DNA of 64,000 bases from an uncultured Thermodesulfobacteriota bacterium (GTDB taxonomy: Bacteria; Desulfobacterota; JBBIRW01), in assembly GCA_964505185.1 (NCBI GenBank), contig CAZDGM010000006.1, positions 10,944 through 74,943 of the forward strand, given 5' to 3'. Below, piece by piece: positions 2,153 to 39,595 of this stretch (the stretch's first letter is position 1; every line of letters begins with the position of its first letter). The translations under genes were made by a program, and so were the position numbers. The notes under the pieces were generated by a model, which made no database searches, had not been told where the DNA came from, and was given only the letters and a program-made list of their open reading frames with translations.

Positions 2153-2326
2153 ATGAAAATCCTTCTTAGCTTATTAATAATAATTCTGTGGATCTTTATT
2201 TCCTTTGTTATTCTTCCAAGGTTTGGAATAAGAACTTGAGGTATACATAATATAAGGTGCAGGAGTGGCACCGAAGAGAAAGGGAAAGAAGAGGGTGGGG
2301 ATGTAATTTCAGACAGAAGGGGGTAA
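2153..2326 (+). CDS. Candidate small membrane-anchored selenoprotein (57 aa if TGA 2237-2239 is read as Sec)
   Basis: RBS GGGGTGA upstream of ATG 2153. Translation: MKILLSLLIIILWIFISFVILPRFGIRT-U-GIHNIRCRSGTEEKGKEEGGDVISDRRG*. A hairpin follows the TGA, and the read-through stop lies 3 nt before the next ATG (2330). Confidence 0.62.
2256..2272 (+). promoter_or_regulatory. Putative bacterial SECIS element for TGA 2237-2239
   Basis: GGTGC-A-GGAG-T-G-GCACC: 5-bp GC-rich stem plus an A-U pair with one bulged G, GGAG apical loop about 22 nt after the TGA, in otherwise A-rich sequence. Confidence 0.55.
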
Positions 2327-12888: not shown

Positions 12889-14301
12889 TCAGAAAGCAAT
12901 GGTATGAATGGAATCATTCTCTAACTCATCGATCTTTGTTTTTACCTGGATAAATTTATCAAGCGAGTTGTCAAATGGATCATTCATGATAATCTTTCCT
13001 GCCCCAATCTTTTCAAGATTCACATTTGACCAGTCTATTGCAGAAATAAGCCCCTTTTTCTTGAGATATTTTACAATCTCTCCCCTCACACGGGCCCTTG
13101 TGTCCTGCGGGGGTTGATAAATTGCCCTTTCAATTTCCTTATCACTGAAAAATTTTATTACCAAGCCAGCATCTTCAAGCCTGTGATAGATCCCAGCTTC
13201 TGGATCTATATTATGGTAGGATATATCGAGCTGTAGAAGTCTGAAGCCATTGCCAGCCATTCCATTTTTTTTCTTATATTTATCGATCAGATTAAGCTTT
13301 ATAGCCCAGTCAATCCTGTCTGCAAGTCCCATGGGATCGGTCTTTAGCGTTTCAATAAGCTTTTTCCAATCTTCAAGTATTCCTTTAGATTCCTGATCTA
13401 ATCCTTTCTGAATATAAAATTTTTCCGCATATTCAATATATATTTCTTGGATTTCAAGGGGTGTATAATACCTCCCATCATTCATTTCAATTTTGACTTT
13501 GCATGTTAGATCATCGTTTATATCACGTAGTGCTTTCAGTGGATTCCTTATTTCAATATTCTTTTTGAAATATCCATTCTCTACCATATCGAGCACGATC
13601 CCCATTGTTCCCAGTTTTATATATGTGGTAAAGGGAGACATGTTGGAATCACTAAGAACTATATGGAGCCTTCTGTAAAGAAGGGGATCGGAGAGCGGTT
13701 CCTCTCGTGTATTTATAATGGGTCTGTCCCCCGTTGTTGATCCAGAGTAGACCTTTTCAATAAAATTCGCCCTCTGGGAGATTTTAAATCTTACATTGCC
13801 TCCATTCATATGGAGCCTTCCTGCTCCAGTAAATACAGTTCTCGTTACAAGGAATGGTATAATTTTCTCTGCCAGGTATGAAAAATTAACATCCTGTCTT
13901 ATCAGATAATTTTCATGACATCCGTATGTGTTCCCTATGGAGTCAGTATTATTTTTAAATATCTGAAATTTACCTATTAACCCTTCTTTTTCAAAAGATT
14001 CCTGAACTTTTTGGGCAATATTGTTCAATATCCTTTCTCCGGCCACATCATAGAGAACTGCATCCCTTACACTTGAACACTCAGGCGTTCCATATTCTGG
14101 ATGGCAGCCCGTGTCCTGATAAAGCCTCCCTCCATTTTCGAGGAATATGTTATAAATAGTTTCATTGGGGCAAAGGCTTTCAAAAAGAGCCTTTATTAGA
14201 TATTCACTGAACAGCGCCCTTTTTCCTGCAGGAGAAGAAAAGGGGCTCACATAATAGATTGCAAATTCCGTCTCTAATCCATAAATCCTTTTTTCATGCA
14301 T
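12889..14301 (-). CDS. pafA: Pup/UBact-protein ligase, PafA family; start reassigned to ATG 14301
   Basis: RIYGLETEF, FLENGGRLYQDTGCHPEYGTPEC, FKNNTDSIGNTYGCHENYL, RRLHIVLSDSN, LDISYHNI and TRARVRG match PafA rather than Dop. The listed N-terminal 36 aa overlap a terminator. Confidence 0.88.
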   Translation of the reverse strand: MHEKRIYGLETEFAIYYVSPFSSPAGKRALFSEYLIKALFESLCPNETIYNIFLENGGRLYQDTGCHPEYGTPECSSVRDAVLYDVAGERILNNIAQKVQESFEKEGLIGKFQIFKNNTDSIGNTYGCHENYLIRQDVNFSYLAEKIIPFLVTRTVFTGAGRLHMNGGNVRFKISQRANFIEKVYSGSTTGDRPIINTREEPLSDPLLYRRLHIVLSDSNMSPFTTYIKLGTMGIVLDMVENGYFKKNIEIRNPLKALRDINDDLTCKVKIEMNDGRYYTPLEIQEIYIEYAEKFYIQKGLDQESKGILEDWKKLIETLKTDPMGLADRIDWAIKLNLIDKYKKKNGMAGNGFRLLQLDISYHNIDPEAGIYHRLEDAGLVIKFFSDKEIERAIYQPPQDTRARVRGEIVKYLKKKGLISAIDWSNVNLEKIGAGKIIMNDPFDNSLDKFIQVKTKIDELENDSIHTIAF

Positions 14302-14380
14302 GATGAAACCCACCAATTGGAAATGCATAAATTGTGCCATTGAATTTTGGTATAGATAGTCGGTATTATGGATAAAAATA

Positions 14381-14406
14381 AAAAAGGAGGGAAAACCCTC
14401 CTTTTT
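14381..14406 (-). terminator. Rho-independent terminator after ppsA (potentially bidirectional)
   Basis: AAAAAGGAGGG-AAAA-CCCTCCTTTTT perfect inverted repeat with T tracts, about 40 nt downstream of the ppsA stop. Confidence 0.85.
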
Positions 14407-14443
14407 CAATTTTATAATTTTTCAAAATTGAAACCTGCCCTCT

Positions 14444-17628: not shown

Positions 17629-17889
<261 letters not shown>

Positions 17890-36512: not shown

Positions 36513-37082
36513 TCAATTGATTTCTTTTCCCATTTTAAACGCCAATATATTCACCTCTTTATATTTTTCAGGGACCCTCTTTTCTATTGCCTTTATCCAT
36601 GCATTTTCATCGAAAGGAATATGATTGGATGCAGCTCCAAGCAGGACTATATTTACCGCCCTGGAATTTCCTGCCTGTTGAGCTATCTTAATTCCATCTA
36701 CAAATATCGCCCCTGATGAAGAAAGTATTTCATCAATATTTTCCGGATATTTTTCCTTTCCAGCAAGAACAGAGAGTGGATTGATTTTCATCCTGTTAAC
36801 AATAATTTTTCCATTCTTCTTTAAATAGCTCAGATATCGGAGACCTTCCAACTCTTCAAGTGCAATTATAAGATCACAAAAACCCTTTTCAACCAGCGGG
36901 GAAAAAACCTTATTCCCAAATTTAACATGAGATATAACACTTCCTCCCCTCTGTGACATTCCATGTATTTCTGCCTGTTTGACATCATAACCGGATATTA
37001 TTGCTGCTTCTGCAATGATATCACTGCACAGTATTATACCCTGCCCACCAACGCCAGTTATGATAATGCCCATCTGATTCAT
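36513..37082 (-). CDS. iorB: Indolepyruvate:ferredoxin oxidoreductase beta subunit; start at ATG 37082 overlapping the upstream stop
   Basis: GVGGQG, EIHGMSQRGGSV and NIVLLGA motifs. Confidence 0.93.
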   Translation of the reverse strand: MNQMGIIITGVGGQGIILCSDIIAEAAIISGYDVKQAEIHGMSQRGGSVISHVKFGNKVFSPLVEKGFCDLIIALEELEGLRYLSYLKKNGKIIVNRMKINPLSVLAGKEKYPENIDEILSSSGAIFVDGIKIAQQAGNSRAVNIVLLGAASNHIPFDENAWIKAIEKRVPEKYKEVNILAFKMGKEIN

Positions 37083-39595
37083 TAATGTATCTGTGCACAT
37101 ATTTCAATTGCCCCAAACTTGCATAGCTGCTGACATACCGTGCACCCCCTGCAAAGATCAGGATCAATGCTTACATATTTTTTACCATCCCCATCAGTTT
37201 TAAATTCCATTGCAATGCATCCGGCCTTTAGACATACACCGCATCCCGTGCATTTTTCCTTTATCACCGTCATTTTTTCAAACCAGATATTCTCAACAAG
37301 GACACAGGGCATCTCAACAATAATTACAGAGGGCTCATCTATATTTATTTCCCTTTTGATTATTTCTTCAGCCTCCGATATATTGTAGCTATTTATCTTA
37401 CTTACTCTTTTTATACCCACAGCCCTGACAATCGCCTCTATATCAATCTTGATTGTTTCCTCATTCTTTGCTGTTTTTCCTGTGCCAGGATGTGCCTGTC
37501 CTCCTGTCATAGCAGTTGTTCTATTATCAAGGACGATGATTGTTGAACTCCCTTTATTGTATGCTATATCTATAAGTGATGTTATACCTGAGTGGAAAAA
37601 TGTTGAATCTCCAATAACAGCAACCACTTTACCCCTTGCATCCTTTCCCATAGCCTTTTCTATTCCATGTGCCATACCTATGCTTGCACCCATGCATATA
37701 CAGCTATGGAGGGCTTCAATAGGAGAAAGGGCTGCAAGAGTATAACAACCAATATCACCTGATACAAACACTTTAAGCTTCCTCAGTGCTGTAAAAATAG
37801 CCCTGTGTGAACAACCCGGACATAGTGATGGATGCCTTACCGGTATATTTAGGTTCATTTCCTGAATTATTGACCTATCCGTATCATTTGATCTTAGACC
37901 AAAGGATTTACGAAGTAGGTCGGGTGTATATTCACCACACCTCGGTAAAATATCCTTGCCTACAACAGCTATACCCATTTCTTTTATCTGCTCCTCTAAA
38001 AAAGGATCGAGCTCCTCAATCACCAAAATTTTTTCAACTTCCGAGGCAAATTTTCGGATCAAATTATGTGGGATTGGATAAACCATTCCAAGTTTAAGAT
38101 ATGATGCATCAGGAAATACCTCTTTTGCATGATTGTAACAGATACCACTTGTTATGATACCAATTTTTCTATTTCCCCATTCAATACGGTTAATTGACAT
38201 TGTCTCAGCAGCAGTTGAAAGCTTCCTTATTCTATCCTCAACTATTGGATGTCTTAATCTTGCAAATGCAGGCATCATCACATATTTTGGAATATTTTTT
38301 TCTGGTTCAATTTTTGAATTCCCCTCTTCTCTATCCTCAAGTGTTACTATTCCCTTTGAATGTGAAATCCTTGTTGTTGTCCTTAATAATACAGGTGTAT
38401 CAAATTGCTCACTTATTTTAAAAGCTATCTTAACAAATTCTTTCGCTTCCATGCTATCAGATGGCTCAAGCATGGGTATCTTTGCAAACTTTGCATAGTT
38501 CCTATTATCCTGTTCATTCTGCGAACTATAAAGGTTGGGATCATCCGCTGTAACTATTACAAGACCACCCTTTATCCCTGTATATGAGAGTGTAAAAAGC
38601 GGATCAGAGGCAACATTAAGTCCGACATGTTTCATTGAAACAAGTGATCTTGCCCCAGCGATGGAAGAACCTATTGCAACTTCGAGAGCAACCTTTTCAT
38701 TTGGAGACCATTCGCAGTATACACCTTTATATTTTGTAAGAGCCTCAAGAATCTCTGTGCTTGGAGTTCCAGGATAGGCTGTTGCTACCTTTACATCTGC
38801 CTCATAAGCTCCTCTTGCAATTGCCTCGTTTCCAGAAAGTATAATCTTTGGTTTTTCTACTTTATAATCGGAAATTTTGTATCCCATATATGCCCTTTTC
38901 AATTTCTCCTTATCAAAAATTTCGTCAGAATTTCCCTGCATAACAATCCTTCCTGTTTCCATTACATATGCCCTTTTTGAAACACTCAAAGCAAGATTTG
39001 CATTCTGTTCAACAAGAAATATGGTCTTACCCTCCATTGAAAGTTTTTTAATTATATCGAATAACTCCCTTACAATCAGCGGTGACAGGCCCATTGATGG
39101 TTCATCCATTAATAGAAGTTTTGGTCTTGCCATCAATGCCCTTGCAAGTGCAAGCATCTGCTGTTCTCCACCAGAAAGCGTGCCTGCAATCTGTTTGTAT
39201 CTCTCTCTTAATATAGGAAAGAGATTCATTACATAATCCATATCTGCCTTTACCTCTGCATATTTTTTCTTTCTCAATCTCAAATAAGCACCAAGCTCAA
39301 GGTTTTCCATCACCGTCATATTGCAGAATATCTGCCTACCCTCAGGGACGTGAATTATACCAAGCTCAACGATCCTGTCAGGACTTTTATTCTGTATCTC
39401 TTGTCCCATGAAGATAATCTTTCCTTTCGCGGCCCTGATAAGACCTGAGATTGTATTTATAAGTGTTGTTTTGCCAGCACCATTTGCCCCTATAACTGCT
39501 ACAATCTCCCCCTCGTCAACATGGAGGTTTATCTCCTTTAAAGCCTCTATTTCGCCGTAATATGTGCTTACTCCGTTCAGTTTAAGAATGCTCAC
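37082..39595 (-). CDS. Fusion of LivF-type ABC ATPase (aa 1 to ~238) and indolepyruvate oxidoreductase alpha subunit IorA
   Basis: N-terminal GANGAGKTT, LSGGEQQM, DEPS and RAYMG; then LSGNEAIARG, YPGTPSTE, NEKVA, CPGCSH, GDIGCY, GDSTFFHSG and a C-terminal ferredoxin, in one 837-aa frame. Confidence 0.88.
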   Translation of the reverse strand: MSILKLNGVSTYYGEIEALKEINLHVDEGEIVAVIGANGAGKTTLINTISGLIRAAKGKIIFMGQEIQNKSPDRIVELGIIHVPEGRQIFCNMTVMENLELGAYLRLRKKKYAEVKADMDYVMNLFPILRERYKQIAGTLSGGEQQMLALARALMARPKLLLMDEPSMGLSPLIVRELFDIIKKLSMEGKTIFLVEQNANLALSVSKRAYVMETGRIVMQGNSDEIFDKEKLKRAYMGYKISDYKVEKPKIILSGNEAIARGAYEADVKVATAYPGTPSTEILEALTKYKGVYCEWSPNEKVALEVAIGSSIAGARSLVSMKHVGLNVASDPLFTLSYTGIKGGLVIVTADDPNLYSSQNEQDNRNYAKFAKIPMLEPSDSMEAKEFVKIAFKISEQFDTPVLLRTTTRISHSKGIVTLEDREEGNSKIEPEKNIPKYVMMPAFARLRHPIVEDRIRKLSTAAETMSINRIEWGNRKIGIITSGICYNHAKEVFPDASYLKLGMVYPIPHNLIRKFASEVEKILVIEELDPFLEEQIKEMGIAVVGKDILPRCGEYTPDLLRKSFGLRSNDTDRSIIQEMNLNIPVRHPSLCPGCSHRAIFTALRKLKVFVSGDIGCYTLAALSPIEALHSCICMGASIGMAHGIEKAMGKDARGKVVAVIGDSTFFHSGITSLIDIAYNKGSSTIIVLDNRTTAMTGGQAHPGTGKTAKNEETIKIDIEAIVRAVGIKRVSKINSYNISEAEEIIKREINIDEPSVIIVEMPCVLVENIWFEKMTVIKEKCTGCGVCLKAGCIAMEFKTDGDGKKYVSIDPDLCRGCTVCQQLCKFGAIEICAQIH

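Follow-up and report, generated by a model that had tools for sequence, protein, structure and literature searches.

Does the UGA at the end of a 28-codon open reading frame (ORF) just upstream of a dsrE-like gene terminate translation, or does it encode selenocysteine (Sec)? The question arises in a 64,000-nucleotide stretch of DNA from an uncultured Thermodesulfobacteriota bacterium (contig CAZDGM010000006.1, positions 10,944 to 74,943; this whole stretch is hereafter called the window). A sequence-only reading of the window had proposed a hidden selenoprotein here, a membrane-anchored micro-protein of 57 residues with Sec at position 29 and a possible redox partner, Cys, at position 36. We found that the micro-ORF is a real, unannotated gene for a small membrane protein under purifying selection, and that the UGA, the spacer behind it, and a hairpin maintained at the level of RNA structure are conserved and inherited together as one unit. 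Sec recoding is the most specific explanation for this unit, and the UGA most likely encodes Sec at least part of the time. For recoding at this UGA as such we put the chances at about even, a judgment that includes a small share for a variant in which the recoded frame serves as a selenium-responsive leader.

The micro-ORF starts 8 nt past the stop codon of a gene for an MBL-fold hydrolase. A Shine-Dalgarno-like GGGGTGA (2144-2150, + strand) serves it, and its 28 codons (2153-2236, +) run from ATG 2153 through one hydrophobic helix and the residues LPRFGIRT (MKILLSLLIIILWIFISFVILPRFGIRT) to TGA 2237-2239 (+), the candidate Sec codon or ordinary stop. The in-frame continuation after the UGA (GIHNIRCRSGTEEKGKEEGGDVISDRRG) extends to TAA 2324-2326, and the ATG of the DsrE-like gene stands at 2330. 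Re-reading the DNA returned the ribosome-binding site, ATG, TGA, continuation, and dsrE-like ATG at the positions originally assigned to them, and the numbering of U29 and C36 was correct. By the positive-inside rule, the C-terminus of the micro-peptide is probably cytoplasmic.

To relatives of this locus we were led by exact-protein look-ups. The close ones share the gene order of the window and comprise L088, whose MBL-fold protein is 96% identical to that of the window; L114 and L115, from two NCBI assemblies; and L083, L084, and L089, in which the MBL-fold protein is 79% identical and the synonymous sites of neighboring genes are saturated (dS 1.2-2.9). The micro-ORF is present throughout, and its start, length, frame, and stop are kept across the four lineages of this clade (counting the window), with a one-codon insertion giving 29 codons in L114 and 28 codons in the others. 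The ratio of nonsynonymous to synonymous substitution rates (dN/dS) among these lineages is 0.13-0.31, and the substitutions are conservative. In the three comparisons involving L114, the synonymous proportion of differences exceeded the nonsynonymous proportion with Fisher P values of 0.0016-0.049. Among the six frames, that of the micro-ORF has the lowest ratio of nonsynonymous to synonymous proportions (pN/pS), and its differences fall mostly at codon position 3. The single-helix membrane protein of the sequence-only reading is thereby borne out as a conserved gene, with purifying selection and copies in relatives. A 127-codon antisense ORF (2086-2469, −) that covers both micro-ORF and hairpin as well as the beginning of the DsrE-like gene was treated as spurious; it is open in relatives too, and its pN/pS lies above that of the sense frame. 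Of the close relatives, L089 (NCBI JAWCPQ010000181.1, 2,684 bp) carries the bacterial AcrB/YgaP/MBL/micro-ORF/thioesterase cluster, yet is filed in a metagenome-assembled genome (MAG) of a Candidatus Aenigmatarchaeota archaeon, and it is probably mis-binned.

Could there be no gene at all, only a chance short ORF in an intergenic gap beside a chance hairpin? Short hydrophobic ORFs are frequent in AT-rich DNA, and the window sequence has no database family or annotated homolog: the 28-, 31-, 52-, and 57-residue forms found no family in Pfam-A or NCBIfam 20.0 (E up to 1 or 10), the sole exception being a chance-level match to FxsA (E 0.08), and a search of the PDB with the micro-protein gave no match. 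The comparative data already contradict this explanation. Four lineages agree in the start, frame, length, and stop of the ORF, show dN/dS far below 1, and have an indel the size of a codon; a distant clade, described below, has a recognizable copy with a strong Shine-Dalgarno sequence; and the spacer and hairpin are conserved far above neutral sites. We regard a chance origin as very improbable.

Behind the UGA, a 16-nt spacer (2240-2255, +) leads to the hairpin GGUGC-AGGAGUG-GCACC (2256-2272, +), whose 5-bp stem is formed by 2256-2260 and 2268-2272 and whose loop is AGGAGUG. The GC-rich hairpin that had been noticed 16 nt after the TGA is thus present as described and is a candidate bacterial Sec insertion sequence (SECIS). 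Its minimum free energy (MFE) is –7.8 kcal/mol in a 54-nt context, which 2 of 200 shuffles matched, and –6.4 kcal/mol alone. The pattern GGTGC-N(2-14)-GCACCGA occurs once in the window and not at all in 100 shuffles, and none of the 23 ordinary TGA gene stops in the window is followed by a hairpin passing SECIS constraints at –7.5 kcal/mol. Within this one sequence, the UGA-hairpin pattern is only weakly beyond chance; the decisive support is conservation. Because no run of U follows it, the hairpin does not qualify as an intrinsic terminator on the + strand. On the minus strand, a terminator-like call was set aside, as no gene of that strand leads into it and a T-run is absent from this place in the distant clade.

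Conservation of the unit is visible first within the clade of the window. Between the window and L083, spacer and hairpin together (33 nt) show 3 differences, compared with about 60% at the synonymous sites of neighboring genes (P about 1e-9). All 3 fall in the 16-nt spacer, which taken alone still differs less than neutral sites do (P about 0.001) and has no indels in the clade, and the hairpin is identical in the window, L088, and L083. The lineage of L114 has changed more: in the 39 nt behind the UGA it differs from the window at 8 positions, and 7 of these changes lie on the L114 branch. The window branch has acquired 1 change in those 39 nt since the loss of a thioesterase gene discussed below, where about 5-6 would be expected if they were neutral (P about 0.02-0.04), which indicates that the copy in the window is still constrained. 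The recoding element may have been lost in the L114 lineage alone (L114 4013-4057, and L115).

The same arrangement recurs in a distant, high-GC clade. The MBL-fold homolog P0028, 51% identical to the protein of the window, led to L117 and L118, and P0082, 49% identical to the protein of the window and 81% to P0028, led to L119-L121; related MBL-fold proteins in this clade carry NC10/Methylomirabilales labels. In L117 and L119, an AcrB-like gene is followed by a strong Shine-Dalgarno sequence (AAGGAGG and GAGGAGG, respectively) and then by a 31-codon single-helix ORF (MEWLGQAGLFVAAAVIWVVLQIALRKAGVLT in L117, MDWLGQVWTVGAVLGIWVVLQIILRKAGVPT in L119) that stops at TGA. After this TGA and a further 10 nt comes GGUGCUCGUCGAGCACC-GA in L117 and CGUGCUCGUCGAGCACG-GA in L119, in either case the same 17-nt frame and outer stem as the hairpin of the window, apart from a swapped outer pair in L119. 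The distant peptide aligns with that of the window as W-h-h-h-[S/Q]-h-h-h ... [R/K]-x-G-[I/V]-x-T-U-G (h, hydrophobic) and again ends in G-V-x-T-UGA-G. Gly and Gln after the UGA (U-G-x-Q) are common to L083 and the distant clade through different codons. In all, TGA stands at this position in six of six distinct sequences, those of the window, L088, L114/L115, L083/L084/L089, L117/L118, and L119-L121.

In the distant clade, the spacer is constrained along with the hairpin. L117 and L119 show 60 nt without indels although they differ by 16 substitutions, and both of their differences in the 10-nt spacer are synonymous in the read-through frame. Over the first 10 read-through codons, which cover spacer and hairpin, there are 4 synonymous differences at 7.3 synonymous sites (Sd 4/7.3) and 1 nonsynonymous difference at 22.7 nonsynonymous sites (Nd 1/22.7); over the last 10 codons the corresponding values are Sd 4.5/7.2 and Nd 6.5/22.8. 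The part conserved here is also the part that makes up the RNA element. In both loci, the stop of the read-through frame coincides with the start of the following gene in an ATGA overlap (L117 2376-2530, before YgaP; L119 2081-2235, before OsmC). The gene after the unit is DsrE in the window, a thioesterase in L083, YgaP in L117, and OsmC in L119; since this gene varies while the hairpin stays, the hairpin belongs to the micro-ORF and not to the gene downstream.

Pairing in the hairpin is itself conserved. The outer stem pair is G-C in L117 and C-G in L119 (CGUGC...GCACG), a compensatory double change. Over the six sequences, 88% of cells are paired; sliding the partners lowers this to 19-48%, and as high a value came from 3 of 500 shuffles. 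The SECIS covariation that the sequence-only reading had suggested looking for accordingly amounts to one clean compensatory pair among six sequences, in which L114 breaks a pair.

How closely does the unit resemble a bacterial SECIS? The published consensus has an apical loop of 3-9 nt, an upper stem of 4-16 bp, a UGA-to-loop distance of 16-37 nt, an MFE of at most –7.5, and G in the first two loop positions, usually as N1-G-[G/U]-N-N2 (PMC13188914, a 2026 review). The hairpin of the window has a 7-nt loop beginning AG, a 5-bp stem, a distance of 21 nt, and the two MFE values given above, on either side of the limit. L117 and L119 pass fully, with a distance of 17 nt, the loop C-GUC-G, and –10.1 and –9.2 kcal/mol. 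In the verified Escherichia coli fdhF element, the UGA is followed by 11 nt and then GGUUGCAGGUCUGCACC, which we checked in 5,419 E. coli genomes. In both, a small G+C-rich stem-loop whose first loop positions contain G stands a fixed, short way behind the UGA, and the likeness extends to the stem bases GGU(U)GC/GCACC and the AGG at the start of the loop, which are the same as in the window. The two differ in that the stem of the window is only 5 bp, its loop lies 21 nt from the UGA rather than the 17 nt of fdhF and L117/L119, and it reads GGA rather than GGU. The micro-ORF further differs from fdhF in having no conserved fold past the UGA and no known Cys homolog.

The lineage very probably decodes Sec, because a gene of an NF041197-type selenoprotein family lies about 1 kb upstream in the same operon. 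This gene (1133-1339, +) encodes a small zinc-ribbon-like protein with two CxxC motifs, between which an in-frame TGA (1178-1180) is kept in four lineages of the clade. It reads MDCPFCRKEMEVQGT-U-SGSFWRCQGCGRIFY..., or, with the TGA shown, MDCPFCRKEMEVQGT-TGA-SGSFWRCQGCGRIFYTMEELKTC.... The 26 codons past its TGA are clearly coding (window vs L083: Sd 8.5/14.3, Nd 8.5/63.7), and an 8-bp hairpin (1189-1207) presents a GGU loop 16 nt after the UGA. With U changed to C, the protein matches the NCBIfam model NF041197, "dual CXXC motif small (seleno)protein," at E 3.3e-5 and 24 bits, below the 40-bit cut-off; NF041197 (OS_HP3, or hypothetical protein DW) is listed among known selenoproteins. This neighbor shares with the micro-ORF its small size, the conserved in-frame UGA, and a hairpin downstream; unlike the micro-ORF, it encodes a soluble protein and shows coding conservation past the UGA. 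It is probably the first selenoprotein candidate of the sequence-only reading, which counted the micro-ORF as its second. Methylomirabilota MAGs are reported to have very large selenoproteomes. The 3' end of the dual-CXXC gene overlaps the start of the MBL-fold gene by 29 nt in the window.

What lies beyond the hairpin is a purine-rich stretch (2273-2326, +), the charged tail of the sequence-only reading, which evolves neutrally and varies in length. The read-through frame has 28 codons in the window, 30 in L088, 27 in L114, 16 in L083, and 20 each in L084 and L089. A 1-nt indel between the window and L088 shifts its stop, and L114 has 33 extra nt and a frame that stops 45 nt before DsrE. In L083, L084, and L089, a gene for a 152-residue 4HBT thioesterase with a full 4HBT_2 domain (L083 4539-4997) separates the micro-ORF from DsrE. 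GTG 4539, the sole canonical start codon available to it, falls within the loop of the hairpin, and residue 24 is the first of the Pfam domain. L083 and L084 differ by a TAA-to-CAA change that moves the read-through stop but is silent for the thioesterase. Read in the thioesterase frame, the window gives MAPKRKGKKRVGM followed by a stop, against MAPRRKNNKRIS..., in an alignment that is of low complexity and has no outgroup, and it keeps a TAA 3 nt before the DsrE start. We therefore take 2273-2326 as unconstrained sequence, probably left over from the two ends, 5' and 3', of a thioesterase gene that was lost. The lineages without the thioesterase (the window, L088, and L114/L115) seem to have a common junction ahead of the DsrE start, a pattern suggestive of a single deletion in their ancestor. 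That the read-through frame of the window fills the intergenic gap exactly is incidental. Of the Sec proposal, then, the ORF, the conserved UGA with its SECIS-like hairpin, and the Sec-family gene in the operon are supported; the defined 57-residue product is not.

The strongest competitor to Sec recoding is an ordinary stop. The only product would be a membrane peptide of 28 residues, which may assist the pump or some other membrane protein of the operon as an accessory subunit; the hairpin would be employed otherwise, in intercistronic mRNA stability or processing, in the pausing of terminating ribosomes, or in control of initiation at the next gene; and the sequence past the hairpin in the window would be the thioesterase relic. 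Several observations weigh against recoding, and many of them suit this alternative. TGA terminates 24 of the 63 likely genes in the window, and stop-codon identity is kept in 4 of 6 neighboring genes too, so that a conserved UGA is by itself weak evidence. A hairpin at least this good under SECIS constraints accompanies 1.7% of all TGA triplets in the window; the fit of this one to the published constraints is marginal; its UGA-to-loop distance is 21 nt, compared with 16 in the dual-CXXC gene of the same operon; and the Rfam SECIS models gave no match on 2000-2500 at gathering score or at E up to 10, a negative that is not decisive because bacterial SECIS elements are too diverse. Past the UGA, residues are conserved no further than the RNA explains. 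The first 78 nt after the TGA differ between the window and L088 by Nd 7/61.8 and Sd 2/16.2 (dN/dS about 0.9, the rate of neutral sites), with 5 nonsynonymous and 2 synonymous changes lying within the 54 nt past the hairpin, and the 8 changes between the window and L114 in the 13 codons after the UGA are all nonsynonymous, with 0 synonymous. Read-through in L083 would overlap the start of a real thioesterase gene, and the placement of that start in the loop, like the synonymous TAA-to-CAA change, is natural if the UGA is a stop. In L114 and L115, the ORF and its UGA are retained and the dual-CXXC gene is intact, but the hairpin has lost its closing pair, folds at –5.6 kcal/mol, and fails SECIS constraints, which means that the constrained helix can persist without a good hairpin. 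The Cys codon UGC (2258-2260) provides three of the five stem pairs; its conservation is therefore confounded and proves nothing about a U29-C36 redox pair, and the U-to-C spacing is 6 residues in the clade of the window versus 4 in the distant clade. Neither selA, selB, selD, nor tRNA-Sec lies within the 64-kb window, where the only tRNA, and the only Rfam match, is a tRNA-Pro. Finally, Cys-for-U homologs were not found by a word-indexed search with the U-to-C 57-residue form, by HMMER over 1.84 billion representatives, in Pfam or NCBIfam, or by tblastn against plasmids; this negative is uninformative because the exhaustive search missed a known 31-residue relative, P0163, that is itself in the collection. 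An ordinary stop nevertheless gives no specific reason for a hairpin conserved 10-16 nt past the stop across distant lineages and four different downstream genes, and leaves unexplained the conservation of the spacer, its synonymous-only changes between L117 and L119, and the match to SECIS geometry and to the fdhF apex. Intrinsic termination of transcription on the + strand is not on offer as a function, given the missing U run, and the Shine-Dalgarno sequence of the next gene is not sequestered in L117 or L119. We dropped an ordinary stop plus a relic of the thioesterase start as a sufficient explanation, since L117 and L119 show the UGA-hairpin unit and no thioesterase. An ordinary stop in its broader form keeps a substantial chance in our estimate, somewhat short of even.

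A further possibility is that Sec is inserted and that read-through serves to bring ribosomes to the next gene, whose translation would depend on selenium supply, the extended peptide being irrelevant. This selenium-responsive leader would account for a tail that is unconstrained in sequence and yet stays open, for the ending of the frame in an ATGA overlap in L117 (YgaP), L119 (OsmC), and L088 (DsrE) and 3 nt before DsrE in the window, and for the situation in L083, where ribosomes reading through would unfold the hairpin in which the start codon of the thioesterase lies. The frame of L114, however, stops 45 nt short of DsrE, and that of L083 stops inside the thioesterase gene. The stretch is T-poor, for which reason all three frames tend to stay open and are fairly open here, and 2 of 3 frames would reach the DsrE start region by chance. 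The downstream genes own good Shine-Dalgarno sequences, and the helix is under purifying selection, which a pure leader would not need. We consider a leader improbable.

If recoding is correct, the gene would encode a small single-pass inner-membrane protein with the UGA as a Sec codon. The hairpin 16 nt downstream would act as a bacterial SECIS, to which SelB with Sec-tRNA would bind so as to deliver Sec at position 29. Translation would continue through the hairpin (G-I-H-N-I-R-C-R-S-G-T-E-E) into a stretch of indifferent sequence and length and would end shortly ahead of the DsrE-like gene. Functionally, the product would amount to a helix with one Sec, and perhaps a nearby Cys, positioned at the cytoplasmic face of the membrane, in an operon setting of a resistance-nodulation-division (RND) pump and of sulfur or selenium handling (YgaP-like transmembrane protein, dual-CXXC selenoprotein, MBL-fold hydrolase, and DsrE-like protein). 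Binding of SelB to the hairpin, Sec insertion, membrane orientation, and any redox or metal-binding role are what we infer from sequence comparison.

Several known systems bear partial resemblance to such a protein. Bacterial families with Sec near the C-terminus include UXX-star, KCU-star, and SaoC Cys-Cys-COOH, for which metal or metalloid binding has been proposed (PMC13188914). They share with the micro-protein a Sec near the end of the protein and a hairpin constrained as RNA rather than as protein sequence. They end 0-3 residues past U, whereas the frame of the micro-ORF continues for 16-30 codons; the micro-protein, moreover, matches no NCBIfam model, theirs included, and is essentially only a transmembrane helix. 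In eukaryotes, SELENOK and SELENOS have one N-terminal membrane helix and a disordered cytosolic tail that bears Sec, and the Sec of SELENOS pairs with a nearby Cys. They have lengths of 94-189 residues and carry Sec as the second- or third-last residue, and the eukaryotic SECIS lies in the 3' untranslated region. The layout is alike by analogy only, without homology and in another domain of life. AcrZ (with AcrB), KdpF, and CydX are small single-helix accessory proteins of membrane complexes and have no recoding signal. Size, single helix, and operon position are similar, and in L117 and L119 the gene directly follows that of the AcrB-family pump; the micro-protein has no similarity to the small-protein families of Pfam or NCBIfam, however, and in the clade of the window its gene lies two to three genes from the pump.

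Taken a step further, the data may point to an undescribed family of single-pass membrane selenoproteins of roughly 45-60 residues, present in two deeply separated uncultivated lineages, encoded in operons of RND pumps and sulfur or selenium handling, and built in a layout like that of SELENOK and SELENOS, with Sec at the cytoplasmic face and a drifting tail. We advance this tentatively, as something a little less probable than its negation. Were it true, it would be the first bacterial selenoprotein that is little beyond a membrane anchor; a 2026 catalog of 119 prokaryotic selenoprotein families contains no single-helix micro-protein of such kind. Standard selenoprotein searches, which need a Cys homolog and a conserved fold past the UGA, would miss such genes, and gene callers truncate such ORFs at 28-31 codons or omit them. 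The operon context, with its RND pump, YgaP-like transmembrane protein, dual-CXXC selenoprotein, MBL-fold hydrolase, and DsrE-like or OsmC protein, would point to a membrane-associated step in the handling of sulfur, selenium, or soft metals. If the UGA is only a stop, what remains is an unannotated, conserved small membrane protein with a conserved SECIS look-alike, and a caution for SECIS-based prediction.

Other searches for relatives of the unit were negative within their scope. Metagenome scans with patterns drawn from the clade of the window alone gave no relatives; their 23 pattern matches were chance occurrences inside other genes, as were matches inside coding sequence in L047 and L067, and a pattern scan of viral contigs gave nothing. 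Eighty reference-genome loci with MBL-fold homologs (27-41% identity) had neither the gene order nor the UGA-hairpin unit, and homologs of the DsrE-like protein at 60% identity or less had an ArsR-type regulator upstream and no micro-ORF. A literature search for DUF2892 together with selenoproteins found nothing. A scan for larger TGA-split genes in the window likewise found none, with length limits that missed the small dual-CXXC gene.

In gene order, an AcrB-family pump gene, cut at the window start, precedes a gene for a YgaP-like transmembrane protein (DUF2892; 913-1107, +, by Pfam). The dual-CXXC gene comes next, then the MBL-fold hydrolase gene (1311-2144, +, by Pfam) and the micro-ORF. 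The next gene downstream encodes the DsrE/TusD-like sulfur-relay protein (2330-2680, +; Pfam DsrE, E 1.4e-20), and after it come genes for a DUF2238-like membrane protein, PAP2, and QueC. Elsewhere in the window the genes are ordinary metabolic ones, plus a Pup ligase: the Pup-ligase family gene lies at 12889-14409 (−; Pfam E 3e-135) in this genome of 39% G+C, and sigma-54 activators, aldehyde:ferredoxin oxidoreductase, and 2-hydroxyacyl-CoA dehydratase-type genes are also here, a combination that hints at an anaerobe of Nitrospirota-like type. An 837-codon ORF (37082-39595, −) joins an ABC-transporter ATPase (residues 19-167) to the POR_N, TPP-binding, and 4Fe-4S parts of a 2-oxoacid:ferredoxin oxidoreductase; it is either two genes in one stop-free frame, a real fusion, or an assembly artifact. 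An 86-codon ORF (17632-17889, −) that ends in TGA encodes a two-cluster ferredoxin-like protein (CxxCxxCxxxCP twice); it lies within the 476 nt that separate the pyruvate phosphate dikinase gene from the OsmC-like gene.

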